From the NCBI GenBank assembly GCA_011364925.1, contig RDOA01000031.1, positions 1-41,143 of the forward strand: DNA of 41,143 nt, in the 5' to 3' direction. Each line of letters opens with the position of its first letter. The stretch's first letter is position 1. Below the pieces are notes generated by a model that searched no databases, had not been told where the DNA came from, and saw nothing but the letters and a program-made list of their open reading frames with translations. This stretch comes from Promethearchaeota archaeon (GTDB lineage: Archaea; Asgardarchaeota; Lokiarchaeia; Sigyniarchaeales; SOKP01). A program made the translations under genes and the position numbers. Below, piece by piece: positions 3,836 to 31,759 of the stretch.

Positions 3836-3843
3836 TATCCACC

Positions 3844-5494: not shown

Positions 5495-5526
5495 ATTATA
5501 TAAACAATAGGGCGTGAAAAAAGAAG

Positions 5527-9698: not shown

Positions 9699-9810
9699 CA
9701 ATCTATACAACATTTAGATCTTTTTTTCTATGATATTCGATCTTATTTAAACTTTAGAAAGTAGGGAATAATAGGTTAAATACAAAATTTAATTAAAAAG
9801 TAAAAAAAAC

Positions 9811-11211: not shown

Positions 11212-11304
11212 TTTTTTGTTCCTTTATTCAATATTATATCTTTTAAGTAATATTTATTCTAATTTAAAGTATTATCAATTGAATTAATGATAATTAGTCT
11301 TTGA

Positions 11305-11985: not shown

Positions 11986-11987
11986 GT

Positions 11988-12413
11988 TTAATTACCTCTT
12001 CGTATTGGGTTAGGTCCTAACTCTTTAAGTTCTTTTGTGTATTCCTTAGCAACTTCAGTTAAGTAAACTCCTTCTGAAGCAGAAACAAATATGTATCTTG
12101 CTCTCTTGGGATTAATTCCAAACTGTTTTAAATACCTATGAAGTATAGGCATTTTTCGAACTGTTTTAAGGTTTCCTTCTATATAATGGCAATCTCCAGG
12201 GTGGCAATGGCTAATCAGTACACCATCCGCACCATTCATTAAAGCATTTATAATGAATTGGGGATCAATTCTTCCTCCACACATTACTCTCACAATTCGT
12301 AAATTTGCTGGGCGTTGCATTCGCGAAGTCCCAGCTCCATCTGCACCTGCATAAGAACACCAATTACAAAAAATTCCTAAAATATAAGGATCAAATGCTT
12401 CTGAACTACTCAA
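11988..12413 (-). CDS. mvhD: MvhD [2Fe-2S] subunit (copy 2)
   Basis: FCNWCSYAGAD, RVMCGGRID, HCHPGDCHY, VSASEG. Start reassigned from 12458 to the in-frame TTG at 12413, giving a short 8-nt overlap with the end of hdrA. Confidence 0.92.
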   Translation of the reverse strand: MSSSEAFDPYILGIFCNWCSYAGADGAGTSRMQRPANLRIVRVMCGGRIDPQFIINALMNGADGVLISHCHPGDCHYIEGNLKTVRKMPILHRYLKQFGINPKRARYIFVSASEGVYLTEVAKEYTKELKELGPNPIRRGN

Positions 12414-14433
12414 CTTCAACTTCCTCTTTTTCTGGTTTCTTAGGAATAGCGGTTTCAATCATGGGTAATATCTGTGCATCGCCAAAATGGTTTTGAATAA
12501 TCGCTTTAGAAGGGCAGCCTGCTACGCAAGTACCGCAACCTTTACACAAGATATCATTTATTTCAGCCACGTTTTCAATTTCGTTGAAGGTTATGGCATT
12601 AAAAGGACATAAACTAATACATGATTTGCACCCTGCGCATTTATGACTTAAAACTATTGAGTAATAAGGAACAATCTCAACCTCACCTCGTGCCATTAAG
12701 GTTGAAGCGCTAGAAGCAGCAGCCTTAGCTTGAGCAACAGTATCGGGAATATCTTTTGGTCCAACAACATTTCCAGCAACAAAAATACCTTCAGTTAGTG
12801 TATCAACTGGGCGTAATTTAGGATGAGCTTCCATTAAGAATCCATCTTCTGTTTTAGTTGCTGTTACATTAAAAATTCGAGCTATATCATCGATATCTTC
12901 TCGAGGTTCTAAACCGACTGACAATACAACCATATCTACTTCTAGCTCTAATGGTCTTTGTAACGTGGTGTCTTCAGCTCGTACGATGACATTTCCATTC
13001 TCTGCTTCCAATAATTCTGCAACTCTTCCTCTGATGAACTTAATTCCATAATTTTTAGCCGTGTCGTTGTAAAACTCTTCGTATCCTTTTCCAAATGCTC
13101 TAAGATCAATATAGAAAATAAATATTTGCGCATCGGGATGTTTTTCTTTGTAGGAACGAGCTTGTTTTGTAGCATACATGCAACAGACTCGGGAACAATA
13201 TTTTCTTCCTTTTCCAGTAAACTCACGGCTCCCAACGCATTGTACCCACACAAGTTTTTTTGGTTCTTTTTGATCTGAAGGTCTTCTCACCTTTCCTCCA
13301 GTTGGACCGTATGAGGAAAGTAATCGTTCCATCTGAAGTGCGTTTATTACATTTTTTATTCTTCCAAATCCATATTGTTTCATTCGTCTAGCATCGTAAG
13401 GATCGTATCCTGTCGCTAATATAATAGTTCCAACCTTTATATCTACATATTCGGGTTTATCGTTATATCTTACTGATTTTGTAGGACACACTTCCTTACA
13501 AATCCCACACCGGATACAATGGTTCATGTCGATTGTATATTGACCTGGGACTGCTTGAGGAAAAGATAAATAAATCGCTTTTCTTGGTTTCATCCCTAAA
13601 TCGAATTCGTTTCCACACACTACAGGACAAGTGTCTACACAATGTCCACAACCTGTACACGTATCCTGATCGATATAATGGGGATATTTAACGATTTTAA
13701 CTTGAAAATTACCTACATAGCCATCGAGTGATACAACCTCAGAATAAGTCATCAACTCGATATTTGGATTACGTGCTATTTCGCTCATTTTAGGAGTTGT
13801 AATACAGGATGAACAATCCATAGTTGGAAATGTTTTATCAAGTTGAGCCATATGACCCCCTACCGTAGGTGATTTATCAACTAAGTAAACTTTGTATCCT
13901 GAATTTGCCAAATCCAAAGCTGCGTTAATTCCAGCTATACCTGCTCCAACAACTAATGTAGAAGGTTCTACTTTTACAGTCGTAACTTCTAACGGCTTAA
14001 GCTCACTAACTTTCGCTACAGCCATCCTTATGTGGTCTTTTGCTATTTCAGTAGCTCCAGGAACATCGTTCATAGTTACCCACGTGCAGTGTTCCCGTAT
14101 ATTAGCTTGTTCGAAAAGGAACTTGTTTAGACCACCTTCTTCACATGCTCGCCTAAAAGTTTCTTCGTGCATTCTTGGAGAACAAGAAGCTACTACGACT
14201 CTATTAATTTTTCCATCTTTGATATCTTCCATAATCATGCCTTGTCCGATATCTGAGCACATGAATTTGTATTCGCTCGCAAGTACAACATAGGGCAAAG
14301 TTCTTGCGTAATCACACAATTTTGGAACATCTACGACACCCCCAATATTAACTCCACACCAGCAGATATAAACTCCAATTTTAGGGGGTTCTCTCCCATT
14401 GAGTTCAGCTAGATTCTTAACTTTTGTTACCAT
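12406..14433 (-). CDS. hdrA: Heterodisulfide reductase subunit A (copy 2)
   Basis: VYICWCG, SCSPRMHE, NIREHC, GAGIAG, LDKTFPTMDCSSC, QCVGSR, YCSRVCCMY, GPKDIP and ferredoxin motifs. Confidence 0.97.
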   Translation of the reverse strand: MVTKVKNLAELNGREPPKIGVYICWCGVNIGGVVDVPKLCDYARTLPYVVLASEYKFMCSDIGQGMIMEDIKDGKINRVVVASCSPRMHEETFRRACEEGGLNKFLFEQANIREHCTWVTMNDVPGATEIAKDHIRMAVAKVSELKPLEVTTVKVEPSTLVVGAGIAGINAALDLANSGYKVYLVDKSPTVGGHMAQLDKTFPTMDCSSCITTPKMSEIARNPNIELMTYSEVVSLDGYVGNFQVKIVKYPHYIDQDTCTGCGHCVDTCPVVCGNEFDLGMKPRKAIYLSFPQAVPGQYTIDMNHCIRCGICKEVCPTKSVRYNDKPEYVDIKVGTIILATGYDPYDARRMKQYGFGRIKNVINALQMERLLSSYGPTGGKVRRPSDQKEPKKLVWVQCVGSREFTGKGRKYCSRVCCMYATKQARSYKEKHPDAQIFIFYIDLRAFGKGYEEFYNDTAKNYGIKFIRGRVAELLEAENGNVIVRAEDTTLQRPLELEVDMVVLSVGLEPREDIDDIARIFNVTATKTEDGFLMEAHPKLRPVDTLTEGIFVAGNVVGPKDIPDTVAQAKAAASSASTLMARGEVEIVPYYSIVLSHKCAGCKSCISLCPFNAITFNEIENVAEINDILCKGCGTCVAGCPSKAIIQNHFGDAQILPMIETAIPKKPEKEEVEVE

Positions 14434-14448
14434 ATTTATATACCTTCT

Positions 14449-15402
14449 TTAAGCAGAATCTCCTATTTTAGTTAATACAGGTTTCATGGGTGTAAATGGA
14501 GGTACTCCTTTTAACTCTGGGCTTTTAATTAGGCCCATTTCTTCTGGAGTCATACCTATTGCTAATCCTATTAGTTGAGTAAAATAAAGAACTGGAATAT
14601 TAAAAGGAGCACTGATTTTATCTTTAAAAATATTATTTACTTCCACTTGTCCTAAGTCGAATTGAAGGTGACAAAAAGGACAACCAGTTATTATTACATC
14701 TGCTTTAGCAGCGGTCATATTTTCCAGTTTTTCTCGGGTATAATCGAGGGATAGTTCTTTGAAAGCACCTCTCACTCCACCACCCGCACCACAACACATA
14801 AATTTATCTTTATAATTTAGACTTTTACATCCCGAAATTTCTACTAATTCGTCAAAAAACGTTGGATTCTCGCATTCCATATCCCAAGGTCTTAATTTAG
14901 CAGGTTTTGTGAGATGGCAACCGTAATGAACAGCAAGATTTAGATTTAGTGGTGTTTTTCTCCCGTATTTTGTTCTATTTCTTATTTTTTCGGGACCGAT
15001 ATCGTGATACATAATATCGACAACATGTCGGATTTCGATAGTTCCTTTAAATTCACGCCCGATTTTTGCGAGATGTTCGTTAACTTTTCTTCTTTTTTCC
15101 TTGTCCTCTTTTAATGTATGATTTACTTCGAGTAAACTTCCATAACACCCGTTACACATTAACGCGATATCTAAACCGAGCTCTTCGGCAATCGTTATAT
15201 TTCTTGCTCCTACAACAAGCCATGTTTCGATATCAAATCCTCGGAATACGCCAGGAGCAGGACAGCATGACGCTCCTTTCATATCCACCAATTCTATTTT
15301 AAATTTTTCGAAAACAGCTCTAGTTGCTCTTTCAATAAAAGGGTATCTATTAGGGATAACACACCCTAAAAATAATGCAAATTTTGAGTCATTACTAGCC
15401 AT
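14449..15402 (-). CDS. hdrB: Heterodisulfide reductase subunit B (copy 2)
   Basis: LFLGC, SCCPAPG, CNGC, HYGCH, CCGAGGG, CPFCHLQFD. Confidence 0.96.
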   Translation of the reverse strand: MASNDSKFALFLGCVIPNRYPFIERATRAVFEKFKIELVDMKGASCCPAPGVFRGFDIETWLVVGARNITIAEELGLDIALMCNGCYGSLLEVNHTLKEDKEKRRKVNEHLAKIGREFKGTIEIRHVVDIMYHDIGPEKIRNRTKYGRKTPLNLNLAVHYGCHLTKPAKLRPWDMECENPTFFDELVEISGCKSLNYKDKFMCCGAGGGVRGAFKELSLDYTREKLENMTAAKADVIITGCPFCHLQFDLGQVEVNNIFKDKISAPFNIPVLYFTQLIGLAIGMTPEEMGLIKSPELKGVPPFTPMKPVLTKIGDSA

Positions 15403-15407
15403 AATTA

Positions 15408-15980
15408 TTAACTTTCCTCTTCACCTTTTTTTTTTTCGTAATCACCTACTCCTGTTAGCTTATCAAATTCCGTACTCTTTAAAAGAGTTTGAATTTCTTT
15501 TTCTGCTTCAGGATATTGGTGCGTAGTTGGTGGAAGTTCATTTAACTTATGATATTCCCGCAATTTTTTCCATTTTTCTTCGTTAATAGGAACACCATGT
15601 CCTGTGTTGTAAAACATTTTACAGAGCGCGATATGAGGTTCTTGCATATACCCTTCTTTGACTGCCAAATTTCTAAGAGAAATTATAACATCCGTAACAG
15701 GTACACCACGAGGACATCTTTCCAAGCATGTATAGCAAGTGCTACAGAACCATAACTCTTTATCTGAAAGTATTTCTTCTTTTAATCCTAGCTGTACTTT
15801 TTTCATTAAAGATCTTGTTCTAGAAGCAGTTCTTCTTCCACTTGGACAACTGCCAGTGCAAGTTCCACATTGAATGCACGCACATAACTCTAAATAACCA
15901 GCGTCCCTTAGTAATCTAGTGAGATCATCACTCACATATGTAATCTTTTCTGGTTTGATATTTTCCATTACACTTTCCAC
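15408..15980 (-). CDS. hdrC: Heterodisulfide reductase subunit C (copy 2)
   Basis: CIQCGTCTGSCPSGRRT and WFCSTCYTCLERCPR. GTG start, or ATG at 15968. Confidence 0.95.
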   Translation of the reverse strand: MESVMENIKPEKITYVSDDLTRLLRDAGYLELCACIQCGTCTGSCPSGRRTASRTRSLMKKVQLGLKEEILSDKELWFCSTCYTCLERCPRGVPVTDVIISLRNLAVKEGYMQEPHIALCKMFYNTGHGVPINEEKWKKLREYHKLNELPPTTHQYPEAEKEIQTLLKSTEFDKLTGVGDYEKKKGEEES

Positions 15981-16530: not shown

Positions 16531-19407
16531 TTAATGATCGATAATAGGCAAAGAGAAGAAAAAGGTGGATCCTTTATTTCTTCCTTCCGATTCTACCCAT
16601 ATCTTTCCTTCGTGAAGCGTAATCAATTCTTTAGAGATATACAATCCGAGTCCTGTTCCTTCGATGCCTACATCCCAGCCCTGACCATATCGTTCAATTT
16701 TCCCAAACTGAGTAAAGAGTTGAGATTTCTCTTTTTTAGTTAAGCCAATCCCGTTATCTTTTATCGAAATAATATAATATCCGCCTTTCTGACTTGAATC
16801 TATCGTAATTGTTCCTCCAATGGGAGTGTATTTTATAGCATTGATTAGTAGGTTTGAAATGACCATAGATATTTTCTCTTTATCAAATACAGTATACAAG
16901 TTTTCTTTCACATTAATTTTGATGTTTTGTTCTCTTAAGTCAGATTTACCTCGTAACTCTTTTACGCAGTACTTTATTAAAAAAGAAAGATTTTCTCGTT
17001 GCGTTTTTAATTTCAGTAATCCTTGTTCTAATTGCGAACTATCAACGAGCGAATTAATATAATCTTCAAGACGCTTACTCCCGCTTTTAATTTCTTTTAG
17101 GATTGATTTTACATCCTCATCTAATTTATCAGAGTGTAACTTTAGTAATAATTCTGTGAATCCCTTAATAGATATTAGAGGGGTCTTCAATTCGTGAGAT
17201 GTTCGGGAGAAGAGGTCGCTTTTTAGTTTGTTAATTTCGCTTAACATCCTATTTTGCTCTTCTAAGTGTTGCTGAGATTTCCATCTTCTCTGTTCAATTT
17301 CGAGAGCATCACATATTAAAAAAAGAACTAACTTATTTTGATTAGAAATAGTAGGATTTTCGGTAAATAACACGCATAACAAATCGTTTAGATCGTTTCC
17401 TGATAATATTAATTTACCATAACAAGCTCTAATTTTGTATTCTTTAATAAATGGATCAGTTTCGGCGTATTTCGTCTTATTAATATCATAAAATTCTTGA
17501 GTAAAATCGTGATTTTCGTAAAATAACTGACTTACAAATAAATCGCGCGTGAATTCTTCAGAATTATAAATTTTAACATTCCCCTTGTTCGACATAACTC
17601 TGTAGTGTTCCTCCTCCTCATCGTCATCTTCATCTATAATTTTATTAATATAAAGAACAATTTCACCGTGAAGTAGTTTAAGACATGTTTTCAGGAGCAA
17701 TTCTATGTTTTGCTGAGTATCCGCGGTATAATTTAGAAAGTTGATGTTAAGTTCGTAAATTAATTCTTCGTACAATTTTTTTTCTGTTACGTCTTCCAAC
17801 CACAATCTAAAGCTAATCAAATTACCTTCTTCGTTGTATTGGTTTAATCTTTTACCTTGGAGCCACTTTATTTTCCCTTGTTTCGTAACAATTCTAAACT
17901 CTGTTTCTTTACCCTCTTCCGAGTTTAGTAATTTTAGCAGATCATCTGGATGGATAATTTCGTTTAAGAGTTTCTTGTTAACAACGCTAATATCTTCATA
18001 ACCTATAAATTCTAATAGCTTAGGATTAAGATAGGAAATGCTATTTTTTTCTAACTCAATCTCTAATATTCCAATAGTAGATGTCTCCAGCAAATCTCGT
18101 AATTTTTCTTCAGAATCTTTAATTCTTTGTTCAGCTAACTCCCTTTCCGTAATATCCTCTACAGTGAAAATAATGTTATCAATTTCGCCATCATCACCAA
18201 GGAGGGGCGTTCCATTAATTGATATTAGAATGAACTTCTTGTTAGGAAGTATCATTGTAGCTCTATAATCGAATATAGGTTGTTTGGACTTTATAATAAC
18301 CTGAAACGGTAATTGATCTATAGGAATTACTTTTCCATTAAGATCACGGAATTCAAAATTTGAAGTTACTATGTTCAATTGAAAGAGTTCTGATTTGGGA
18401 GATCTCAAAACTCTTTCAGCTTGCGAATTTGCATAGGTTATATATCCCGTTTTATCGACTGATAAAATCCCAGCAGGATTCGTTTCCATTATACGTTCTA
18501 ATCGATCGTGTTGCTTTTGAAGGTCTTCTTCTGTTTTCTTTCTTTCTGTTATGTCTTCAAATGTAATGAGAAGACCAGCGACATTACCGTCAGAATTTAG
18601 TAAGGGAATTCTATTTATATCGATCCAAATGATTTCACCGTTTCTAAGAGCCAAGGTTTCAACACTATGAAAAACAGCTTTATTAGAACGAATAACCCTA
18701 CTTTCTTGTTGTCGGTTATATCCTATTTGCATTTTATCCCAGAGTAAATCTTCGTCTGTTTTATCAATTATGTTCTCGGGATGTTCAATTCCTATTAAAT
18801 GTGCATAATTATCATTACATCCTAAATAGCTTAAATCTATGTCTTTCCAAATTATATATTGTGGAATGTTTTCCATTACCATTTGAAGCATTTCGTAGGA
18901 GCTTTGTAAAGCTTCTTCGTATTTTTTCGGATTGAAGAGTTTCCAAAAACGGATTTCCGGTATAGTATCAGTAATTTTCTTAAACCGATCTTCAGTATCT
19001 TTTAGATTTACTTCAATTTTTTTCTGTTTTGAGATATCTTTTAGAATAAGCAAAATTTTCCAGTTACCTTCTTCATCAACAAATTTCTTGGCTTTGATTT
19101 CTGCCCATATTTCTTCGTTTTTTAACGATGAAAGTCTAACTTCTTGCGAGTTTCCCGAAATGTCTACTCCTTTTTTAAGAAACTTAATAATTTTCTTAAC
19201 ATCATCAAGTGAGATGATGTCTATAAATGGCTTTCCGGTCAATTCTGTGCCTGAATAACCTAGTCTTTCTAATAATGAACATTTATTTATTAGATCAATA
19301 GTGAAATCTTCGTTCTGATCGACTCTAACCACTAAATCGTTGGAAATTTCCATGAAAATTTCAAATTGATTCTTGGTTTTTTCTGGTTCGTGTTCATCAG
19401 AAATCAT
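16531..19407 (-). CDS. Soluble multi-PAS (plus GAF-like) sensor histidine kinase
   Basis: About four PAS/PAC units ending in DISKQK, DITERK, DITERE and DVTEKK; H-box SHELKTPL; NLLINAIKY, DNGIG, GTGLGL, GSTF; no TM segment. Confidence 0.93.
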   Translation of the reverse strand: MISDEHEPEKTKNQFEIFMEISNDLVVRVDQNEDFTIDLINKCSLLERLGYSGTELTGKPFIDIISLDDVKKIIKFLKKGVDISGNSQEVRLSSLKNEEIWAEIKAKKFVDEEGNWKILLILKDISKQKKIEVNLKDTEDRFKKITDTIPEIRFWKLFNPKKYEEALQSSYEMLQMVMENIPQYIIWKDIDLSYLGCNDNYAHLIGIEHPENIIDKTDEDLLWDKMQIGYNRQQESRVIRSNKAVFHSVETLALRNGEIIWIDINRIPLLNSDGNVAGLLITFEDITERKKTEEDLQKQHDRLERIMETNPAGILSVDKTGYITYANSQAERVLRSPKSELFQLNIVTSNFEFRDLNGKVIPIDQLPFQVIIKSKQPIFDYRATMILPNKKFILISINGTPLLGDDGEIDNIIFTVEDITERELAEQRIKDSEEKLRDLLETSTIGILEIELEKNSISYLNPKLLEFIGYEDISVVNKKLLNEIIHPDDLLKLLNSEEGKETEFRIVTKQGKIKWLQGKRLNQYNEEGNLISFRLWLEDVTEKKLYEELIYELNINFLNYTADTQQNIELLLKTCLKLLHGEIVLYINKIIDEDDDEEEEHYRVMSNKGNVKIYNSEEFTRDLFVSQLFYENHDFTQEFYDINKTKYAETDPFIKEYKIRACYGKLILSGNDLNDLLCVLFTENPTISNQNKLVLFLICDALEIEQRRWKSQQHLEEQNRMLSEINKLKSDLFSRTSHELKTPLISIKGFTELLLKLHSDKLDEDVKSILKEIKSGSKRLEDYINSLVDSSQLEQGLLKLKTQRENLSFLIKYCVKELRGKSDLREQNIKINVKENLYTVFDKEKISMVISNLLINAIKYTPIGGTITIDSSQKGGYYIISIKDNGIGLTKKEKSQLFTQFGKIERYGQGWDVGIEGTGLGLYISKELITLHEGKIWVESEGRNKGSTFFFSLPIIDH

Positions 19408-19643: not shown

Positions 19644-20489
19644 ATGGAAACGGATGAGTTCTTAAGGTGTATGTCGTGTGGAAAAAAGATGGAACCAAAC
19701 TCAAAAATGAATCATGGTCAGTGTATGGATTGCACTTTAAAATTAGATTTTCAAATCGAAGAATTACATTACGATGCTATGAAACAGAACCTTAAAAGAA
19801 TATTGGATTTTTTTATTTCTGATGTTAATGCTGCTTTTAATAAAGATCCGGCGGCGCGTACCTTAATCGAAGTATTAACGAGCTATCCTGGTATCAAAGC
19901 AGTACTGCTTTATCGTATAGCTCATTTCTTTTGGAAGCTAGGTGTTCCATTCATTCCAAGATATATATCAGATATTGCAAGAGAACTAACAGCAATTGAT
20001 ATTCATCCTGGAGCTGAAATTGGTAGTGAATTCTTTATTGATCACGGGGCGGGAGTTGTCATTGGGGAAACTAGTGAAATTGGTAACAATGTTACGATGT
20101 ATGCGGGCGTAGTTTTAGGAGGTACGAAATTGGAACAAACAAAAAGACATCCAACCATTGGTAACAATGTCGTTATAGGAACAGGAGCAAAAATCCTAGG
20201 ACCTGTTATAATTGGAGACGATGTTCGAGTAGGAGCTAACTCTGTTGTAGTTAATGATGTCCCTCCTCATTGCGTTGTTGTTGGTGTTCCCGCAAAAATT
20301 GTTTCTAAAAAGGGGGAAAGAATAGAAAGAGTAGATTTACGACACGGTGATCTTCCAGATCCAATTTCGATTGCTATTTCTCGTTTAGATAAGAGAATAA
20401 AAGAATTAGAAGCACAATTTCCAGATTTAAAGAAAAATGAAGATGATGATATAGAAATTTTTTATGGAGAATTTGGAAGTGGAATTTAA
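19644..20489 (+). CDS. cysE: Serine O-acetyltransferase with N-terminal Cys-rich extension
   Basis: DPAAR, YPG, IDIHPGA, FIDHGAGVVIGET, KRHPTIG and VGVPAK hexapeptide motifs; AGGAG upstream; paired with cysK. Confidence 0.95.
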   Translation: METDEFLRCMSCGKKMEPNSKMNHGQCMDCTLKLDFQIEELHYDAMKQNLKRILDFFISDVNAAFNKDPAARTLIEVLTSYPGIKAVLLYRIAHFFWKLGVPFIPRYISDIARELTAIDIHPGAEIGSEFFIDHGAGVVIGETSEIGNNVTMYAGVVLGGTKLEQTKRHPTIGNNVVIGTGAKILGPVIIGDDVRVGANSVVVNDVPPHCVVVGVPAKIVSKKGERIERVDLRHGDLPDPISIAISRLDKRIKELEAQFPDLKKNEDDDIEIFYGEFGSGI

Positions 20490-20510
20490 AAATGTACCAG
20501 AGGTAAGGAA

Positions 20511-21440
20511 ATGAAGTATTTCTATAATAATATACTTGAAACAATTGGTAAAACTCCGTTAGTTAAATTAAATCGAATTACTGAAGGTGCCAAACCGAAC
20601 ATTCTTGTGAAACTAGAATCGTTTAATCCTGGTGGTAGCGTTAAAGATAGAATCGCGTTGAGTATGATAGTTAAAGCTGAAGAAGAGAATCTTATTGACA
20701 AAAATACAGTGATCGTGGAACCGACTTCCGGAAACACAGGAATTGGTTTAGCACTTGTCTGCGCTGCGAAAGGATATAAACTAATTTTAACGATGCCCGA
20801 AAGTGTTTCAGTTGAAAGACGACAGATACTCAAAGCCTATGGCGCTGAAGTAGTTCTTACGCCTAAAGAAGAAGGTATGAAGGGAGCAATTACAAAGGCA
20901 GAAGAAATTTCGAAAGAGCGAGGTAAAACATTTATTCCCCAACAATTTAAAAACATTGCAAACCCTGAAATCCACCGCAGAACAACCGCGAAAGAAATTT
21001 TTAACGATTTAGAAGGTCAAGTTGATGGGTTTGTAGCGGGAGTTGGCACTGGTGGAACGATAACAGGAGTGGGAGAAGTTTTAAAAGATAGAGTTGGACC
21101 AAGAATGAAAATTTACGCTGTAGAACCTGTAGAATCTGCTATATTGTCTGGTGGAGAACCCGGACCACATAAGATTCAAGGTATCGGGGCAGGTTTTATA
21201 CCAGATGTTCTCAATACTGAAATATACAATAAGGTTATCACTGTAAAATACGAAGATGCAGTCGCTACAGCAAGAAAATTAGCAAGATCCGAAGGAATAT
21301 TTGTTGGGATTTCTGCCGGAGCTTGTGCATGGGCTACTATTAATGTAGCGTCGAAAGATTTTGAAAAGGGAGATAACCTTGTTGCTCTACTACCTGATGG
21401 TGGAGAAAAATACCTTTCAACTGATTTGTTCCAATTTTAA
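20511..21440 (+). CDS. cysK: Cysteine synthase A (O-acetylserine sulfhydrylase)
   Basis: IGKTPLV, FNPGGSVKDR (PLP lysine), EPTSGNTG, GVGTGGT, PHKIQGIGAGFIP, KYLST. Confidence 0.96.
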   Translation: MKYFYNNILETIGKTPLVKLNRITEGAKPNILVKLESFNPGGSVKDRIALSMIVKAEEENLIDKNTVIVEPTSGNTGIGLALVCAAKGYKLILTMPESVSVERRQILKAYGAEVVLTPKEEGMKGAITKAEEISKERGKTFIPQQFKNIANPEIHRRTTAKEIFNDLEGQVDGFVAGVGTGGTITGVGEVLKDRVGPRMKIYAVEPVESAILSGGEPGPHKIQGIGAGFIPDVLNTEIYNKVITVKYEDAVATARKLARSEGIFVGISAGACAWATINVASKDFEKGDNLVALLPDGGEKYLSTDLFQF

Positions 21441-21455: not shown

Positions 21456-22346
21456 TTAGACTTGTATCCCATCCAATAATAGTAAATTATAGATTTTCTG
21501 CCAATAGTCTTTTATGTTCCAATCTTTTTTCTTTTTTATTTCTTCAGATAAAGCCATAAAAATGCCCTTTATGCTAATTGTATGAAAATAATTGATCGAA
21601 GGAGCGATAAGGGCAATCATGTATTGTTTTTCTCCAAACCTTTCGTTTTCATCAGGATAAGAATCGAAAAAGAGATAACCACGAGTGTTCAAGTTTTTTA
21701 TTTCTAATAAAACACCCTCAGCCTTGGTAATCTTATCGTTCCCATATATTGAAGTCGCTACCGTAAATAACTGATTTACAATACTATCTAAAGAAATCGG
21801 GAACAAACTTTCTTCGGGGTAATATTTGTATAATTCTGGACCATATTTATCATCCCAAAAAGCAAGAAATAGGCAGAGAAAAAAATCATAGGAACCACTC
21901 TCCGATTCCATTTCTATATTTAAGGATGTAAAAGAGTCCTCAATTTTACTATTTAATTCCTTTATTCTTCTATTATGAGTAATTCGTCCTGCTAATGTTG
22001 CAAGTAATTCTTTCTCGTTGAATGGTTTGGTTAAATAATCGTCTACACCTAGCGATTTTCCAAATCTTATGTCTTCATAAGTAGTTTTGGCAGTAAGAAA
22101 AAGAAAAGGAATCCTATTCCAGCGAGGGTTGTTTGAAATTTCTTTAAAAAACTTATAACCATCCATTACAGGCATCATTATGTCGCTTATAATTAATTCC
22201 GGAACTTCTTCAAGACGAGATAGAACTTTTAGAGCCTCTTTTCCATTTTTTGCAGTTAAAGCCTTATAGTTATTAGATTCTAATAATAAGTTTATAGCGT
22301 ATAATAAATCAACATTATCTTCAACTACAAGAATCTGAGGCTTCAA
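21456..22346 (-). CDS. Response regulator: receiver domain plus uDENN/longin-like output domain
   Basis: Intact REC (VVED, phosphoacceptor D55 in IISDIMMPVMDG, FLTAK, TKPF). The C-terminal domain starts LFLAFWDDKYGPELYKYYP and contains DENERFGEKQYMIALI. The REC call is secure; the longin call is by motif resemblance. Confidence 0.85.
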   Translation of the reverse strand: MKPQILVVEDNVDLLYAINLLLESNNYKALTAKNGKEALKVLSRLEEVPELIISDIMMPVMDGYKFFKEISNNPRWNRIPFLFLTAKTTYEDIRFGKSLGVDDYLTKPFNEKELLATLAGRITHNRRIKELNSKIEDSFTSLNIEMESESGSYDFFLCLFLAFWDDKYGPELYKYYPEESLFPISLDSIVNQLFTVATSIYGNDKITKAEGVLLEIKNLNTRGYLFFDSYPDENERFGEKQYMIALIAPSINYFHTISIKGIFMALSEEIKKKKDWNIKDYWQKIYNLLLLDGIQV

Positions 22347-22397
22347 GATAAATCCAATTGAATATTAATTTAAAATTCTTTTACAATAGAATTAGGG

Positions 22398-25022
22398 TTA
22401 ACTATTATATATTTCTTTTTCAATTCTTGGAAGAAAAATGTAAAAAGATGTTCCATGACCATATTCGCTCTCGACATACACTTCTCCAGAGTGGAGTTTT
22501 ATCAATTCTTTCGCAATAGACAAACCTAATCCTGTTCCCGGAATATCAATGACTTCTTCTGACCTAAAAAATCTTTGGAAAATCATTGAAATATCTTTTT
22601 CTGAAATCCCTATCCCCTCATCTTTAATTTGGAATAAAACTCCGTCTCTATCATGTGTGTTATATTTCCCCTTATAATGATCGATTGCTTTGATCTCAAT
22701 GACATTCTGTTTTCTTGAATACTTTATCGCATTGTTAATAAAAATGCGAAATATTTGATCTATCTTTTTACCATCCCCGTACAGTTTAATTTCTTCGCTA
22801 ATATCTCTTATAAAAATTATATCCTTCTCTTTTCCAATTGGTTCCATTAATGTTAAAATATCATCAATAATGATCGATGGTTTATATTCGACCCATATTA
22901 ACTTAGCCTTTCCTTCGTCGATTCTAGACAGGGTTAAAATGTCTTCAATTAAATCTTTTAAGAGATAAATGTTCCTTGAAATTCCCTCCCTCAATTTCCT
23001 TTCCACTTCTGGATTAATATTATCTTTGTGGTTCTCTAGGAACTCAATCGACATTGTCAAAACGCTTACAGGTGTTCTTAGCTCGTGAGATACAGTAGAA
23101 ACAAACCGTTCTAATCTTTCTTCCGCTTCTTTTTTGGCAGTTATTTCCAATCCATAAATATTTGCATACCCTTTTCCCGGGATAGGAACAATAAATAGAT
23201 TAAAAACTCGCTTTTTAAGCTCTACATCTATTTCAATATTATTTCCCTTAGAATATGCCTCATTGACTGATTCCATAAGAATTTCTGGGATTTTACTGCC
23301 CTCTTTTATGTCAAACAGATCTTGACTCGAAGCGTTCGCGATCAGAACATACTTATCACTCACTCTAAAGATAGGATTTGGGTTTTCCATAGGGAACTTT
23401 GCCATATCAGCAATTTTTTCTTGAGCTAATTTTTGAGCACTAATGTCTGTTATAAAAGCCATGGCACCTTTAAATGTACCATTCGTATCAAGAATAGGAG
23501 AGGTTCTTAAAGTTGTAAATACTTTTCTCCCAGATTTGTGTATAAATTCAAACTCGAGATCTTCTTTTATTCCCCGTTTGCGTCGTTCAAGATTTATTTC
23601 TGCCATCTTTTTCCCCTCGTCGTCTACAAACTCATAAAGATTTGAACCCATCATCTCACTAATCTCGTAGCCAAGCATATTTGCCATGCTTTGATTTACG
23701 AAAGAAGTGTTGGCCTCATCATCAATTACCCATATGCCTTCCAAAGAATCTTCCACGAGCATTCTATATTTTTCTTCAGACTCCTTCAATACTGTTTCAA
23801 ATTTACTGTGTTCAGTAATGTCAGTAAAGTTTTGAATTATCCCTATAAGTTCTCCTTTCACATTTCTATATGGCACTGATCGCACAAGACTTACGATTTG
23901 TCTATTATCTTTCAGTTTTGATGTCATCTCATGCTCGTAATGATTAACTCCTCTTTTTATTTGCTTCATTGAACAAATTTCGGTATTACATCGATGACCC
24001 AAATAATTAAACTCCGGATCGTTACACTTTTTGCCTAATATATCTCCCTCAGAAATTTGGAAAAGTTCAGAATAAGTTTTATTAATCCGTATAACCTCAC
24101 AATCTTTCCTTATTATTCTCATTGGTAAAGAAGCGTCAAAAATTTGCCCAAATTCAGAATACATTTGTTCTAAGTCAGTTGCTCTACTTCTTAATGTATC
24201 GTCGCTTAACTTCAACTTCCTAAGGAGTAAACCGAATGGATATTTTAAACCAATCTGTATTATCGCTTTGTACATCAGGAAAAAGGCTATTATTTTTAAG
24301 ATATGACCAATAAAATTAGAAATATCAAATACTCCTACATAAAAAGTAAATGCTAATTCTGAAACTATAGTTACGCTAATTGAGGCTATGATTAAATGAA
24401 ATATTTTTGTGTCAAACTCACTTCGAAACTTATATAAAACTCCTATAGAAGCAAACAGTATCAAAATAATTATGTATTCACTAATAATTTTAAATGGCGT
24501 TTGATACCCGATCCCACCCCCAATTTCGACGTAACAGACTGGAAAAATACCGAAAAAGATGGTTAGAAAAAGAATCGAACTGATTAATATTCCACCGACC
24601 ATTAAGTAACTCGCTTTAACTTTTTTATTTATTACGAGTGAACCAAAAAGGTAAGAAAGTGATTGCCAATATCTTGCAGCGATCCACAATTGAGTTGGGA
24701 GGTTTGCATCGTAACCAATAAAAATAGCCATATCGGAGTAAGATAATGTATGGAGTAAATCTATTACGCCTACAAAAAGGAATGAAGTACCGACAATTAG
24801 AAAAAATGAACTATTCATATACTTTCGAGAATTCCAACCAATAAAAAAAATCCCTCCTGAAATTACAACACTAATTATTTCAGCAATAGAATGAAACAGA
24901 AGAAAACTATAGAATCTAAGTAAGATTGTAAGGACTAATCCTATACTAAAAATAATATATTCAAGTATCTCACGATAACCTTTTAACTTGATATTATTTG
25001 AATCTAAAGATTGATCTAACAG
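22398..25022 (-). CDS. MASE3-PAS membrane sensor histidine kinase
   Basis: MASE3 motifs (LLFHSIAE, DLLHTLSY, NLPTQLWIAARY, SELAFTFY, GHILK); 2-3 PAS units; SHELRTPV; NAIKY, DEGIG, GTGLGL. The frame is open upstream of the ORF-track ATG (24818) to a TAA at 25028-25026; the likely start is CTG at 25022. Confidence 0.9.
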   Translation of the reverse strand: MLDQSLDSNNIKLKGYREILEYIIFSIGLVLTILLRFYSFLLFHSIAEIISVVISGGIFFIGWNSRKYMNSSFFLIVGTSFLFVGVIDLLHTLSYSDMAIFIGYDANLPTQLWIAARYWQSLSYLFGSLVINKKVKASYLMVGGILISSILFLTIFFGIFPVCYVEIGGGIGYQTPFKIISEYIIILILFASIGVLYKFRSEFDTKIFHLIIASISVTIVSELAFTFYVGVFDISNFIGHILKIIAFFLMYKAIIQIGLKYPFGLLLRKLKLSDDTLRSRATDLEQMYSEFGQIFDASLPMRIIRKDCEVIRINKTYSELFQISEGDILGKKCNDPEFNYLGHRCNTEICSMKQIKRGVNHYEHEMTSKLKDNRQIVSLVRSVPYRNVKGELIGIIQNFTDITEHSKFETVLKESEEKYRMLVEDSLEGIWVIDDEANTSFVNQSMANMLGYEISEMMGSNLYEFVDDEGKKMAEINLERRKRGIKEDLEFEFIHKSGRKVFTTLRTSPILDTNGTFKGAMAFITDISAQKLAQEKIADMAKFPMENPNPIFRVSDKYVLIANASSQDLFDIKEGSKIPEILMESVNEAYSKGNNIEIDVELKKRVFNLFIVPIPGKGYANIYGLEITAKKEAEERLERFVSTVSHELRTPVSVLTMSIEFLENHKDNINPEVERKLREGISRNIYLLKDLIEDILTLSRIDEGKAKLIWVEYKPSIIIDDILTLMEPIGKEKDIIFIRDISEEIKLYGDGKKIDQIFRIFINNAIKYSRKQNVIEIKAIDHYKGKYNTHDRDGVLFQIKDEGIGISEKDISMIFQRFFRSEEVIDIPGTGLGLSIAKELIKLHSGEVYVESEYGHGTSFYIFLPRIEKEIYNS

Positions 25023-25048
25023 GCTTTATCAATTCCTTTTTTTATTTT

Positions 25049-25588
25049 TCATATAGCGGACTTCTGAAAAATGGTATAGATCGAGGTTTTAAAGATTCGG
25101 TAAGGAATGTCGTTGGGTATCAACTTTTTTATTTCACTTACTAAGAATTGGATCATCCCTTTATTAATATCTTTTTTTATAAAATCTAAGTCTGGATCAT
25201 ATTTATGAAGAAATACTGAAAAATCAAGGGCAATCTTGAATTTCCTTAGTAATTTGATGATCTCAGCAAGATATTCTAAAGCAATATTATAACGATCTCT
25301 ATCCTGCACATCTAAAACAAAAATTAGTTTACTCGCACCTTGAAGGTGATCGTAAAAATTGGTGAGATATTCTTCCCGAAACCGCTCTTGACCCCCAAAA
25401 TCCCATATACTAAATGTTGAGCCTAAGGTTCGAAATTTGTTAATTTCAAAATTCCTCGTTGGTGTAATAGAACTAAATGAAGAAAGATTTTTCACTCCTT
25501 TTAGACACATCACTATAGAAGTTTTTCCGCTGTTGTCCAACCCCATTATAATTATTTTTTTCGTATTTTTAGAATCCTTTTTCTGCAT
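25049..25588 (-). CDS. Small GTPase, Arf/Rag-like
   Basis: G1 GLDNSGKTS, G2 PT, G3 WDFGGQ, G4 HKYD, G5 TSIY. HKxD and TSI match Rag/Gtr-type rather than NKxD/SAK-type motifs. Confidence 0.9.
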   Translation of the reverse strand: MQKKDSKNTKKIIIMGLDNSGKTSIVMCLKGVKNLSSFSSITPTRNFEINKFRTLGSTFSIWDFGGQERFREEYLTNFYDHLQGASKLIFVLDVQDRDRYNIALEYLAEIIKLLRKFKIALDFSVFLHKYDPDLDFIKKDINKGMIQFLVSEIKKLIPNDIPYRIFKTSIYTIFQKSAI

Positions 25589-25619
25589 ATCTTAAGTCTA
25601 ATAAAAATCCTCCTATAAA

Positions 25620-25931
25620 TTACAAGAGCGTGTCTATTACATCGTTATTACTCATAGAGTCAATAAATGACTTAATATCAATTAGAATTTTAAAGATTTC
25701 TACATTTTTAATCTCATAATACTTAACATTATCCTTTCTTTCAAATTTGATGATGTTACTATTGGTTAAAACTTTTAAGTGTTGAGAAATAGTAGATTGA
25801 GATTTCTCTAAGGCAGATTGAATTTGAGCCGAAGTTTTACTCTCATTATTTATCAAATCTAAGATCTCTAATCGAGTTTGGTCAGCTAAAACTTTCAAAA
25901 ACTCAATAAGATCGTTTCTAAATTCGCTCAT
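25620..25931 (-). CDS. ArsR/SmtB-family transcriptional regulator
   Basis: LKVLADQTRLEILDLI...SQSTISQHLKVL...IIKFERKDNVKYY winged HTH; contains no Cys. Confidence 0.9.
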   Translation of the reverse strand: MSEFRNDLIEFLKVLADQTRLEILDLINNESKTSAQIQSALEKSQSTISQHLKVLTNSNIIKFERKDNVKYYEIKNVEIFKILIDIKSFIDSMSNNDVIDTLL

Positions 25932-26030
25932 AAATCCTATCCAGCAGTATTTTAAGAATATTGGGTATACTTGCTTTTAAATCTACTTTTAATTATTTAT
26001 TAAATATTAGTATTTAAATATAAGATCACC

Positions 26031-26096: not shown

Positions 26097-26618
26097 TTGA
26101 TGGAGAGTAAAGTTTTCAAAATTGACGATATCGATAGGAATATAATCGAAATAATTCAAAAAGATCCGCTGCTTACCCATACTGAGATCGCTAAAAAAGT
26201 TAATCGAAGCCAACCCACTATTGGGATGAGAATACGCAAACTCGAAAAATCGGGAGTTTTGAAGTTTCAAGCAGGAATTAATGTAAAAACTATAGATTTA
26301 ATCCTTGCGAGAGTAGAAATTCAAACTTTAAAACCAGATGCAATTATAAAGTTAGTGAAAAATTGCCCTTATATGTTAAATGCTTTTCGATTAAGTGGAT
26401 CGTCAAACCTTAGCATTATGATTGTCAGTGATAAACTGGCACACCTCGATGAAATCGTCAATCATCACTTTAGGAAAGATCCTAATATTTCCGAAGTATA
26501 TATGGACATAGTAACTGATGTAATAAACGATTTCGTAATACCATTCGATTTTAATTTCGAAACTTGTGGGTTAACAGAATCGGGTCAATGCTGTGGAAAG
26601 TGTTTTGCCCAATCGTAA
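26097..26618 (+). CDS. Lrp/AsnC-family transcriptional regulator with Cys-rich tail
   Basis: IDDIDRNIIEIIQKDP..THTEIAKKVNRSQPTIGMRIRKLEKSGVL HTH; RAM-like domain (AFRLSG); tail TCG...QCCGKC. Start TTG 26097 or ATG 26100. Confidence 0.9.
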   Translation: MMESKVFKIDDIDRNIIEIIQKDPLLTHTEIAKKVNRSQPTIGMRIRKLEKSGVLKFQAGINVKTIDLILARVEIQTLKPDAIIKLVKNCPYMLNAFRLSGSSNLSIMIVSDKLAHLDEIVNHHFRKDPNISEVYMDIVTDVINDFVIPFDFNFETCGLTESGQCCGKCFAQS

Positions 26619-27002: not shown

Positions 27003-28439
27003 ATGAAAGTATACAATAGTCTTACATTCGAGAAAGAAGAGTTTAAAACCCTTGAGCCAGGAAAAGTGAAAATGTACGTTTGCGGCGTGACAGTTTATGG
27101 TTCCCCCCACCTTGGACATGTGAAGTCTGCTGTTGCCTTCGATTTAATTCACAGATATCTAAAATATAAAGGCTACGATGTAAACATCGTCAAAAATTAC
27201 ACAGATATCGACGATAAAATAATCAAAGCGTCTCAAGAAAGCGACCTTGATTTTAGAACTCTAAGTAATCGATATGTCGAAGAATACGAAGAAATCATGG
27301 AAATGTTGAATGTAGCTAAGGACACGTATAATCCTCGTGCTACTGAGGTAATGGACCTTATAATTAAATTCGCTCAGGAACTCATTAAAAAAGGACATGC
27401 GTATGAGAAAAATGGCTCAGTATATTTTTCAGTCCAATCGTTCCCTAAATATGATACAATTCTCCAAAGAGTTAAGGACACGCAAGCTGAAGACGAGGAT
27501 TATATTGCTGATCAAGATACTGCGTTTGGAGAAGATAAACTTGATGTTAGAGATTTTGCCTTGTGGAAGAAAATGAAAGAAGGAGAGCCTTATTGGGAAA
27601 GTCCATGGGGTAAAGGGCGTCCTGGGTGGCATATAGAATGTTCTGTCATGATTTTAAACTTCTTAGGGGAGTCAATTGACATTCACGGTGGTGGTCAAGA
27701 TTTAAAATTTCCGCACCACAGAAACGAGATTGCGCAATCTGAGTCCTATACGGGAAAACCATTCGCCAAATATTTCTTACATAACGGATATGTAAATGTG
27801 AACAACGAAAAGATGTCAAAAAGTCTTAATAATTTTTTTACAGTGGCGGATATAGCAAAAGAATACGACCCTATGGTTATCCGTTGGTATCTAATTTCAA
27901 GTCATTATAGGAGCTCAAACAATTATACACCTGATAGCATGGAACCGGCAAAGAAGACCTATGAGCGACTAATAAACACGATTAAAAAAGTAAATAGCGC
28001 CGATTATAGTAATGCAAAATCGGATGAAATAAATACTCTAATTGAAAAAATTGATGTTAGTAAAAACAAAATTATTGAAGCAATGGACGATGATTTTGAT
28101 ACACCTGTAGCTTTAGCAGAGCTACTAACGCTATTTAGGGAAATTAATAAAGCAATCTTACAAGATAACATAAAAATTAATAAAGATTTTAAGGATATGT
28201 TCTCGGACTTTTTGAAATTTATTGAATCGATTCTTGGAATTTTCCCTTTTCTTAATTCGAAATCTAAATCCTTTTTAGCTGAGAGCACAGATGAGAAAGA
28301 CAATCTGATTAAAAATCTTATAAATTTGGTAATTGAAATCCGTTCAAAATTGAGAGAGAAAAAAATTTACGATATCAGCGACTCAATTCGAGATCGTTTA
28401 AGAGAGTTGGGGATAGAAGTAGAAGATAAAAAAGTGTAA
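27003..28439 (+). CDS. cysS: Cysteinyl-tRNA synthetase
   Basis: MYVCGVTVY, HLGH, NYTDIDDKII, DFALWK, GRPGWHIECS, DIHGGG.DL.FPHH.NE, KMSKS, DDFDTP. Confidence 0.97.
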   Translation: MKVYNSLTFEKEEFKTLEPGKVKMYVCGVTVYGSPHLGHVKSAVAFDLIHRYLKYKGYDVNIVKNYTDIDDKIIKASQESDLDFRTLSNRYVEEYEEIMEMLNVAKDTYNPRATEVMDLIIKFAQELIKKGHAYEKNGSVYFSVQSFPKYDTILQRVKDTQAEDEDYIADQDTAFGEDKLDVRDFALWKKMKEGEPYWESPWGKGRPGWHIECSVMILNFLGESIDIHGGGQDLKFPHHRNEIAQSESYTGKPFAKYFLHNGYVNVNNEKMSKSLNNFFTVADIAKEYDPMVIRWYLISSHYRSSNNYTPDSMEPAKKTYERLINTIKKVNSADYSNAKSDEINTLIEKIDVSKNKIIEAMDDDFDTPVALAELLTLFREINKAILQDNIKINKDFKDMFSDFLKFIESILGIFPFLNSKSKSFLAESTDEKDNLIKNLINLVIEIRSKLREKKIYDISDSIRDRLRELGIEVEDKKV

Positions 28440-28481: not shown

Positions 28482-28886
28482 TCATTGCTGAACAGAACTG
28501 CTGACTATCTCATTACCATCTTCGAGATGCTTATAATGCTTGTATAGAATTGGTCCAAGCTTTACTTCTTTGGTTGTTGAAACGGTTAATACTTGATCTT
28601 CACCCGCGTATAAAACTAGTAGATACCCCTTTTTCGCCTTAATATAGGACTGTTCAAATTCCCCTAGTCCCATCTCTTCAATTGCTCGCTCGCTTAAAGA
28701 GCAGAGAGCTGCCGTCATAGCAGCAAATCGCATATCGTCTGCACTCGATGGCAAGACTGATGCTAGAGGTTGACCAGTATCTGCCGTAAGTTGCGCAGCC
28801 TTTACCCCATCGACATTATCCATAATGTCTCTTAGTAATTCCTCAAGGGAACTCTTAAACTCCCTTCTCTTCTTTAACCCTTTCAT
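28482..28886 (-). CDS. Roadblock/LC7 (MglB/LAMTOR-like) domain protein
   Basis: GVKAAQLTADTGQPLAS, RFAAMTAALCSLSERAIEEMGLGEFEQSYIKAKKGYLLV, VKLG. Confidence 0.9.
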   Translation of the reverse strand: MKGLKKRREFKSSLEELLRDIMDNVDGVKAAQLTADTGQPLASVLPSSADDMRFAAMTAALCSLSERAIEEMGLGEFEQSYIKAKKGYLLVLYAGEDQVLTVSTTKEVKLGPILYKHYKHLEDGNEIVSSSVQQ

Positions 28887-30037: not shown

Positions 30038-31759
30038 TTAAGCTCCGTTAAAGACCTTCTCTTTTGGAGCGTATTCGTCTTGAACAGGATAATTGTTGAA
30101 ATTCACACTATAATGATCTCGCCAGCGAGCTTTCACTTCTTCCAGCATCTCCTCGTAGATATGCTCTTTAATTTCTCCTTCCGCTCGAAGTAGAGTCCCC
30201 ATGCGCGTAGCGACTATTTCTCCGTCTTTTACCACGATCTCGCCATCTTTAATCGTGTAAGCAGCTTTAGAAAAGGCTTTTTCTATCGCTTTACCGTCCA
30301 TGTTCTTTGGATCAAGATCGAACACAGCTACATCACCTATTGCACCGATTCCTAAATGGCCCCTATCTTTCAGTCCTAAAGTTTTCGCAGTTCCTGCTCT
30401 AGTAACTATGCATAACTCATTTAATGTGTATTCGCGATCGAGATCTGGAAGAGAAGTGGCTGTACTGGCTTTATTTGAAACTACGTTTTCTAGCATGTCT
30501 TTTCGAGATTTACGATCCATTAACCATTTGAATACCATAGGATAGGTCGTAAAAGGACCTCCGTTTGGATGATCTGTCGTGTGATATATTTGCCATGGAT
30601 TCTTAACCAAGAGCATTAACTCAAGTCCAATCGCCCACTGAACGGCATTTACTCCGATTTTAGGCGAGAAAAAATAAGGTACTACACCTGATCCAGACTC
30701 TGCTTCCACCTGACCATTAACCCATTTAATTCCAGGTTTAGAGCCCCATGCTGACATTCCTCCTAAATGGTGGAGTGCAAACTCCCAAGGTCCGTCTCCC
30801 GTCATCGTCGTGGTAGCATATTTAGTGAAAACTACTTGACCACTATCCAACGTCATATGTTTGTGTGAATTAACATACTTAGCTATTTCAGCAGCTCCTG
30901 AGTTCATATCTCCCCAGTTGGTACCTGCGTAGGCGTTGAATTGACAGTGGGTAAGATGGAACGAACTTTCTCTATCACCCGTTGGTTTAATTCCTTCGCA
31001 TATTTTCAAAGTCTCAAGGGTGTGGGCGTAATTCCCCGGATGTCCTAGATTGTTGCAATGGACATGGATTGAATGAGGTAATTTTAACAACTCGTTTGCT
31101 TTTGCTAAACTCTCAACAATTTGTCTCGGCGTGATGTCCCAATATAAAACTGGACTATCGACATTGTCGCAGTTTTTACCCCAAGCCCAGTTTTCTACAC
31201 CTCCAGGGTTAACAAGTTTAATTGCGTATCCTTTAGTTGCCTTTAAAATCCAATTCACATACGCTGCTAGCTTTTCAATGTCGTTGTTTCTTATAAATTC
31301 AAGCACATACCAATTATTTCCAAAAATAGGAAGTGCAAGCTTATCTATGATCGGAGTTTCCAAAAATTCCTCGTGAGTATGCCGAGCTTCCAACATAGGC
31401 ATCGCGGGTTCACATACAGTTGTATATCCCATTGTAGCATATCTATATCCCGTTGACCAAGTACTTGGGACGCTAAAACCAGTACCAGATCTTCTTACCT
31501 TAGATTTCAGCTCGTTATATTCTGGTGGTTTGTCTTCCGGTCGCAATTGTCGTCCAGTGTTTACTTTTGCTCCAGCTATGTGAGAATGAATGTCTACGCC
31601 TCCCGGCATAATTATCATTCCATCAGCGTCAATGACTTTTGCCCCACTATTAACTTTATCAACAATAACCCCATCCTTAATGAAAATGTCCTTCTTTTCG
31701 CCATCAAGGTTGTTTAAGGGATCGTAGACTAAGCCGTTTTTTATTATTAAATTACTCAT
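30038..31759 (-). CDS. fwdA: Formylmethanofuran dehydrogenase subunit A
   Basis: LIIKNGLVYDP, GGVDIHSHIAG, MGYTT, EARHTHEE, IKLVNPGG, PHSIHVHCNNLGHPGN, HCQF, TTDHPNGGPF, RGHLGIGA. Confidence 0.96.
   Translation of the reverse strand: MSNLIIKNGLVYDPLNNLDGEKKDIFIKDGVIVDKVNSGAKVIDADGMIIMPGGVDIHSHIAGAKVNTGRQLRPEDKPPEYNELKSKVRRSGTGFSVPSTWSTGYRYATMGYTTVCEPAMPMLEARHTHEEFLETPIIDKLALPIFGNNWYVLEFIRNNDIEKLAAYVNWILKATKGYAIKLVNPGGVENWAWGKNCDNVDSPVLYWDITPRQIVESLAKANELLKLPHSIHVHCNNLGHPGNYAHTLETLKICEGIKPTGDRESSFHLTHCQFNAYAGTNWGDMNSGAAEIAKYVNSHKHMTLDSGQVVFTKYATTTMTGDGPWEFALHHLGGMSAWGSKPGIKWVNGQVEAESGSGVVPYFFSPKIGVNAVQWAIGLELMLLVKNPWQIYHTTDHPNGGPFTTYPMVFKWLMDRKSRKDMLENVVSNKASTATSLPDLDREYTLNELCIVTRAGTAKTLGLKDRGHLGIGAIGDVAVFDLDPKNMDGKAIEKAFSKAAYTIKDGEIVVKDGEIVATRMGTLLRAEGEIKEHIYEEMLEEVKARWRDHYSVNFNNYPVQDEYAPKEKVFNGA

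Follow-up and report, generated by a model that had tools for sequence, protein, structure and literature searches.

We describe a four-gene cassette of a Promethearchaeota archaeon in which a histidine kinase may control a Rag-like GTPase through a response regulator ending in a predicted longin domain of the kind found in eukaryotic GTPase-activating proteins (GAPs). The cassette lies in RDOA01000031.1 (assembly GCA_011364925.1), a stretch of 41,143 nucleotides that we call the window (contig C40 of the 3.9-Mb genome). Four genes follow one another there on the minus strand: ArsR, the Rag-like GTPase, a MASE3/PAS histidine kinase and the receiver-longin regulator. A sequence-only reading of the window had placed four co-directional genes here with gaps of 31, 26 and 51 nt, and a check of the open reading frames (ORFs) returned the same genes and gaps. 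We consider it moderately probable that the regulator is a phosphorylation-gated, homodimeric longin GAP for the co-encoded GTPase. The kinase would sense a signal, autophosphorylate H646 and, as in standard two-component chemistry, pass the phosphate to D55 of the regulator. Phosphorylation would then alter the dimer state or the accessibility of the longin. Two longins would form a bowl like those of the C9orf72-SMCR8, FLCN-FNIP and NPRL2-NPRL3 heterodimers, in which the WD..GP loop would grip the P-loop and Q67 of the GTPase and R236 would speed GTP hydrolysis as an arginine finger.

The regulator's C-terminal part had no match in Pfam. Its structure model (predicted local distance difference test [pLDDT], 82) follows the longin order of secondary structure, with five strands and three helices covering approximately residues 155 to 293, and the chain ends with this domain. 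Foldseek ranked highest GATOR1, DENND10, 8yqg (a longin of Lokiarchaeota) and the FLCN GAP complex in its active form. VIA-align gave Z 12.3 to 8yqg (root mean square deviation, 3.3; 134 aligned); Z was 11.6 for Lst4, 11.5 for the folliculin complex and 9.8 for C9orf72-SMCR8, and structure matching by the two programs also listed NPRL2, FLCN/FNIP and SMCR8. The closest Atlas clusters were SMCR8-like (TM score, 0.71), Heimdall folliculin-like (0.70) and C9orf72 (0.68). Sequence profiles of 43 or 114 rows yielded no match in the PDB at E values up to 10, and an Atlas feature search with the longin returned just unnamed archaeal clusters, all under 0.8. The models support the assignment of the output domain as a longin of the NPRL2/folliculin/SMCR8/C9orf72 kind, in line with the earlier proposal of a longin-type, non-DNA-binding output.

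The residues that matter for GAP activity in eukaryotic longins have candidate counterparts in this domain. W164-D165 and G169-P170 have the same spacing as W33-D34 and G38-P39 of C9orf72, in which the change W33G/D34K nearly abolishes GAP activity on ARF1 (PMC8213707). R236, a candidate arginine finger, lies in the loop between beta4 and beta5, before the fifth strand, often as R-G-G/F/Y. Among longin representatives at 50% identity, the W is conserved in 114 of 121, the G in 115 of 122, the P in 113 of 123 and R236 in 100 of 132. The WD motif and the arginine, which sit on separate subunits in eukaryotes, share one chain in this regulator, implying that its longin would act as a homodimer.

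The receiver-longin family has one copy in the source genome, occurs in 123 of the 151 genomes of the class and is also found in three families outside it. The longin stands behind PAS, RsbRD_N, DUF1638 or hybrid kinases in place of a plain receiver as well, and with so many alternative N-terminal partners it has the character of a modular signaling output. The source genome (G000) encodes a second fusion of a longin to two-component parts, an 826-amino-acid (aa) protein that begins with a longin and ends in a kinase-like part (L209:2846-5326, minus strand, contig C6); its WD and RGG are retained and its GP is altered, and no GTPase gene is nearby. Two further proteins (C25:63858-64412 and C70:13064-14107) carry F-D-x3-GP followed by RGG and are candidate GAP-type longins without a receiver.

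The GTPase has intact G motifs (G1 at G16-S23, T44, WDFGGQ with Q67, HKYD and TSIY) that are invariant in the alignment of its relatives, and the Rag-type G4 and G5 named in the sequence-only reading are both present. In Pfam, Gtr1_RagA (7.6e-24) ranked ahead of Arf (9.2e-21). The closest structure to the model (pLDDT, 88) is LokiRagO (8yl2; TM score, 0.86, versus 0.68 to 0.71 for GerdArfR1). The model stops after strand beta6, without helix alpha5 and without the roadblock tail, and the protein therefore cannot dimerize in the way Rags do. The chain ends 12 residues past the start of G5, compared with 120 to 155 residues in the other Rag-like proteins of the genome, and it is the only one so short among the top 14. 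Same-clade GTPases beside a regulator, where the tail could be read, all end 14 to 17 residues past the G5 strand; those of clade B keep a short helix-like tail. The protein has a Rag-type G domain, in keeping with the Rag-like GTPase of the sequence-only reading, and is not a full Rag. Small stand-alone longins precede other members of the short-GTPase clade. In two cases, a relative of the short GTPase follows a 125-aa protein (L086:9566-9940 and L094:573-950) that by eye resembles an SCP2 lipid-binding domain, without a Pfam match.

A longin pair was co-folded together with the GTPase, GTP and Mg, alongside three controls. The longin dimer-GTPase complex scored 0.80, and the best of the three controls scored 0.00. 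Of 80 solved complexes, 58 attain the mark used here, as do 2 of 110 mismatched pairs; for the present case these figures are only a rough guide. The runs shared at least 91% of contacts, and the pLDDT of the partners was at least 84. Both longin copies touch switch I and switch II, and longin residues 165 to 170 contact Q67 and D18/N19 of the P-loop. In both copies R236 forms part of the interface; a contact between R236 and GTP was not reported. The same arrangement has been described for C9orf72-SMCR8 on ARF1 (PMC8213707). The co-fold thus supports binding of the regulator to the GTPase, in the form of one GTPase and two longins.

Gene neighborhoods also link the two proteins, more often than chance would. 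Loci were chosen by score, and related genomes are not independent samples. Among 101 receiver-longin genes with full flanks, 82 had a small GTPase gene within 3.6 kb, against a background of 13% of genes in the source genome. Every readable genome of the source genus has the four genes in this order, which recurs with different flanks in four further genera and another family (L069). The regulator-GTPase link survives at least six rearrangements. The regulator still lies beside the GTPase where the kinase is missing (L062, L159, L166, L170 and L171), the adjacent GTPase gene is divergent in L114 and L127 and convergent in L185 and L186, and a different GTPase follows the regulator in L056, L058, L161, L167 and others. 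By the GTPase tree, these neighbors come from three or more distinct clades. In another Asgard class, a longin is directly followed by a 462-aa GTPase (L192). The link also extends to fusions: longins are joined to an intact Arf-like GTPase (P0168), to another Arf-like GTPase (P0265) and to Rab-like GTPases (P0140, on a single short contig, and L163). In three loci (L164, L174 and L177), a hybrid kinase-receiver-longin gene lies between two GTPase genes, one of which encodes a full-length Rag-like protein of approximately 310 aa.

Several observations weigh against a dedicated pair. Kindred complexes have been solved (C9orf72-SMCR8-ARF1, FLCN-RagC and GATOR1-RagA), so the co-fold pass may reflect the folding model's memory of them; it attests likeness, and neither binding of this pair nor specificity among the 13 other Rag-like GTPases of the genome follows from it. 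The candidate equivalence of R236 to FLCN R164 and SMCR8 R147 comes from position, conservation and the model. Within the genus, the flanking cysE-cysK and cysS genes are likewise syntenic, and we rejected genus-level synteny alone as evidence since these unrelated flanks are conserved too. Searches of two incomplete genomes (G058 and G048) found an ArsR-GTPase pair with no longin match. Finally, no GTPase lies near 19 of the 101 receiver-longin genes; the arginine persists in 17 of these 19, and GTPases encoded elsewhere may therefore be targets of the domain.

This last pattern, together with the 13 further Rag-like GTPases, would fit a receiver-longin that is a broad GAP for several Rag/Arf-like GTPases, with the neighbor being one client or merely co-regulated. 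The range of GTPases beside or fused to the longin (Rag-, Arf- and Rab-like) points the same way. Longin clade B (support, 99), however, pairs specifically with GTPase clade B (support, 100), and the clade-A GTPase remains by the regulator upon kinase loss or inversion of the order; both trees were built by a quick method and leave many forks open, and we claim no order of events from them. Eukaryotic longin GAPs are also substrate specific (PMC9473554). We therefore judge a broad GAP unlikely, if the most serious competitor to the dedicated GAP.

The longin might instead serve the GTPase as an exchange factor, effector or scaffold, as do the longins of TRAPP, Mon1-Ccz1 and DENN proteins or RomR/RomX of Myxococcus. 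Guanine nucleotide exchange factor (GEF)-type longins fit the fold too (VIA-align Z 9.3 for DENND1A, 8.4 to 9.7 for TRAPP and 8.1 to 8.6 for Mon1-Ccz1), and several longin paralogues lack the arginine, among them copies without a nearby GTPase (L198, L199 and L202-L206). Against this stand the GP motif and the arginine, which are GAP-type features: the GP motif is reported to occur in GAP longins and to be absent from other longins (PMC12290439). The arginine is kept in 97 of 100 receiver-longin copies beside a GTPase, and the model, with GTP bound, puts the GP loop on Q67. The sequence-only reading had left GAP and GEF side by side; the GP motif and the arginine favor the GAP, and we find a non-GAP role improbable.

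The signaling input has the residues of a standard two-component pair. By Pfam and a hydropathy scan, the kinase has a MASE3 domain with about 7 hydrophobic segments, two PAS domains, HisKA and HATPase_c, and a motif scan found the predicted phosphoaccepting H646 and intact N, G1, F and G2 ATP boxes. Its CTG start is supported by orthologous kinases, which begin at the same place with TTG, CTG or GTG; MASE3 starts at residue 36 and would be truncated by initiation at the first ATG (residue 69). Read from its TTG start, the regulator has the intact D55 claimed for it, in a receiver domain (residues 5 to 118) with the acidic pocket E9-D10 and with T85 and K107. In the alignment, D55 is kept in 80 of 81 relatives and K107 in 88 of 88. 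Beyond cysE-cysK lies an orphan soluble histidine kinase of 958 aa (16531-19407, minus strand) with four PAS domains, HisKA and HATPase_c, which shows synteny within part of the genus and might cross talk to D55. In one genome (G011, L034:4933-7539), the orthologous kinase is split into a MASE3 ORF and a PAS-kinase ORF, perhaps by a frameshift or through misassembly.

Binding and GAP activity could be real yet constitutive or set by something other than this kinase; the receiver would then be phosphorylated by another kinase, such as the orphan, or serve only as a dimerization module. ArsR, GTPase and regulator genes do occur without a kinase in the stretch read (L062, L159, L166 and L170), and the receiver is replaceable by PAS, RsbRD_N or DUF1638. 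The phosphosite residues are all conserved, though, in most loci the regulator comes directly after a kinase gene, and hybrids of kinase, receiver and longin exist, so we regard a kinase-independent GAP as quite improbable compared with the phosphorylation-gated one.

The fourth gene encodes a winged-helix protein (HTH_5) of the ArsR kind that contains no Cys, so the Cys-based metal/thiol sensing site of ArsR/SmtB is absent from the source protein. It has a conserved acidic C-terminal tail, DxxDTL. Among its relatives, 63 of 77 lack Cys and 62 of 77 fit the tail pattern. The source protein has 103 aa versus 111 in most orthologues, owing to an in-frame loss of 8 residues before the tail. ArsR directly precedes a short GTPase in five families, often without kinase and regulator; ArsR and GTPase are the older pair within the cassette. 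The two are fused in L088 and L109, both of which lack the DxxDTL tail. ArsR may bind the GTPase, perhaps via this tail, and may be its effector, and a plain autoregulator is the alternative. In the last and weakest step of the mechanism, the GTPase would pass its state to ArsR, with transcription as the output. ArsR is the candidate for this role because it is Cys free, is the oldest gene partner of the GTPase and is fused to it in two lineages; we nevertheless put this step forward tentatively, doubting it somewhat more than we credit it. That the whole chain holds, from kinase to phosphoreceiver, homodimeric arginine-finger longin GAP, alpha5-less GTPase and ArsR, along with the evolutionary parallels considered below, is unlikely; such a chain would be of a type so far undescribed.

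The occurrence of ArsR-GTPase pairs alone in other families, their separation from kinase-regulator pairs on different contigs in G039 and G041 and a genus microsynteny that spans unrelated genes could mean that the cassette is two unrelated pairs, neighbors by inheritance only, which is very improbable given that the link outlasts inversion, kinase loss, new flanks and a change of GTPase clade, that fusions exist, that linkage is 81% versus 13% in the background and that the proteins co-fold.

Two variants of the ArsR part were also seen. In the second cassette copy of one genome (G023), a tandem double ArsR of 217 aa (L064:7324-7977) precedes the GTPase. Elsewhere in the source genome (L208; G000 contig C23:8428-12554), a kinase-like gene, a receiver-ArsR-like fusion and a second ArsR converge on a Rab-like GTPase, an adjacency that could be due to chance.

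The features of the locus are listed in the table. With their short gaps and conserved order, the four genes may form an operon. An inverted repeat, TTAAT-N5-ATTAA (25989-26003), lies just upstream of a TATA-like box, TTTAAAA (25975-25981). The combined pattern was found in 43 of 67 upstream regions, compared with a mean of 6.7 and a maximum of 16 in shuffles (kin are not independent), and the repeat is possibly an operator for ArsR or for the divergent Lrp, which is present at 56 of 59 cassette loci. A scan of the region for bacterial promoters and terminators gave counts no higher than in shuffles.

Table. Features of the ArsR-GTPase-kinase-regulator locus (positions in the window).
Feature	Position	Strand	Basis
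ArsR	25620-25931	-	ORF of 103 aa; Pfam HTH_5, 1.9e-13
Rag-like GTPase	25049-25588	-	ORF of 179 aa; Pfam Gtr1_RagA, 7.6e-24
Histidine kinase	22398-25022	-	CTG start, 874 aa; Pfam MASE3, two PAS, HisKA, HATPase_c
Response regulator	21456-22346	-	TTG start, 296 aa; Pfam Response_reg, residues 5-118
Predicted longin output domain of regulator	21468-21884	-	Structure model, fold search, conservation
Candidate promoter (inverted repeat and TATA-like box)	25975-26003	-	Conserved pattern upstream of ArsR
Divergent Lrp/AsnC regulator sharing the promoter region	26097-26618	+	Pfam; conserved neighbor
Roadblock gene	28482-28886	-	Pfam Robl_LC7

Neighboring genes were considered as further members. The roadblock gene that the earlier reading had noted about 3 kb away is present, 2.55 kb from ArsR beyond Lrp and cysS. 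We rejected it as a member on synteny, as it occurs in 11 of 47 cassette loci, all in the source genus, and it is probably a bystander. In that genus, the cassette is flanked by cysE-cysK (19644-21440, plus strand) and the cysteinyl-tRNA synthetase gene cysS (27003-28439, plus strand). These were rejected as core members of a cysteine-sensing system since they flank just 24 of 63 and 21 of 47 loci; their membership is also weakened by another genus (g18), in which genes for Hsp20, thioredoxin reductase and a thioredoxin-like protein lie downstream instead (L113 and L117). Both sets of flanks are thiol related, possibly by chance. The region is ringed by Hdr-like genes (859-15980 and 30038-31759: two HdrA-like, HdrB and HdrC), with hydrogenase small-subunit-like and formylmethanofuran-dehydrogenase-A-like genes in the same surroundings, as is ordinary for Lokiarchaeia metabolism.

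We know of no Asgard small GTPase with a matched GAP. In MK-D1, operons seldom join GTPases to their regulators, so pairing is difficult (PMC10933270). The cassette names a pair of small soluble proteins together with the residues D55, W164/D165, G169/P170, R236 and Q67, and the input to the regulator can be mimicked with BeF3-. If the mechanism is true, archaea had, under the control of a His-Asp relay, the arginine-finger chemistry that eukaryotes use upstream of mTORC1, and the homodimeric longin would represent the ancestral state of the FLCN-FNIP, NPRL2-NPRL3 and SMCR8-C9orf72 heterodimers. In four loci with two regulators (L148, L150, L175 and L201), one copy has the arginine, and in the other it is missing or the loop is shortened; D55 is retained in the three duplicate pairs that were aligned. 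Such pairs, one with and one without the arginine, mirror the SMCR8-C9orf72 heterodimer and would be a living parallel of the origin of eukaryotic heterodimers.

Compared with the eukaryotic longin GAPs C9orf72-SMCR8 (acting on ARF1), FLCN-FNIP2 (RagC/D) and GATOR1 NPRL2-NPRL3 (RagA/B), the regulator has the longin fold and the GP motif in common. It likewise has WD at the C9orf72 spacing and a conserved Arg before the last strand, and the modeled dimer cups switch I/II of a Rag/Arf-like GTPase. It differs in that a single gene supplies both WD and Arg, in the absence of a DENN/NPRL2-type C-terminal domain, in the phosphoreceiver input and in lacking any sequence-level match. The cassette would thus work like a folliculin/C9orf72-type GAP system and is not a member of those complexes. 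On the GTPase side, G-domain sequence and fold, including G3 WDxGGQ, G4 HKxD and G5 TSI, are common to Rag/Gtr and LokiRagO/LokiRagM (8yl2, 8zla and 9m28), whereas the GTPase here has neither the roadblock domain nor alpha5.

Among archaea, Liu et al. (10.1101/2020.10.19.343400) described many Asgard proteins in which two-component domains are fused with NPRL2-like longins, and they proposed that growth control in Asgards stays centered on two-component systems. The regulator belongs to the same architecture class; the available part of their paper names no GTPase partner, catalytic residues or cassette, and the conserved operon given there is roadblock-GTPase-DENN, unlike the ArsR-GTPase-kinase-regulator order seen here. 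Asgard longins with the same GP and Arg motifs and a proposed GAP activity have been reported elsewhere, with the GTPase partner posed as a question (PMC12290439); in the available text, these are mainly FLCN/SMCR8-type proteins of Heimdallarchaeia, and no receiver fusion or genomic partner is described.

Two bacterial systems share part of the logic. In the actinobacterial conservons (CvnA-D), one operon encodes a GAP and a small GTPase together with a sensor histidine kinase, which is thought to act via the GAP or a GEF (PMC13343842). Their GAP is an MglB-type roadblock protein without a receiver, their GTPase is MglA-like and CvnC is likely a GEF, whereas here a canonical His-Asp relay would end on a eukaryote-type longin; the four cassette genes include no roadblock or DUF742 gene. 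In Myxococcus, as far as the accessible sources describe it, the MglA/MglB/RomR polarity module subjects a small GTPase to a receiver-domain protein and to chemosensory input, but the GAP is the roadblock protein MglB, RomR is not a receiver-GAP fusion and the proteins are unrelated beyond the fold superfamily. In the openly accessible literature, we found no Asgard response regulator acting on a GTPase and no canonical His-Asp relay whose end point is a longin GAP of the eukaryotic type paired with a named GTPase. The claim of a new system therefore stands in part: longin-two-component fusions (10.1101/2020.10.19.343400) and kinase-GAP-GTPase operons (PMC13343842) were known, as were the components and the broad logic, and what appears to be new is the named regulator-GTPase pair, a predicted His-Asp relay that ends on a longin GAP with its GTPase encoded beside it.

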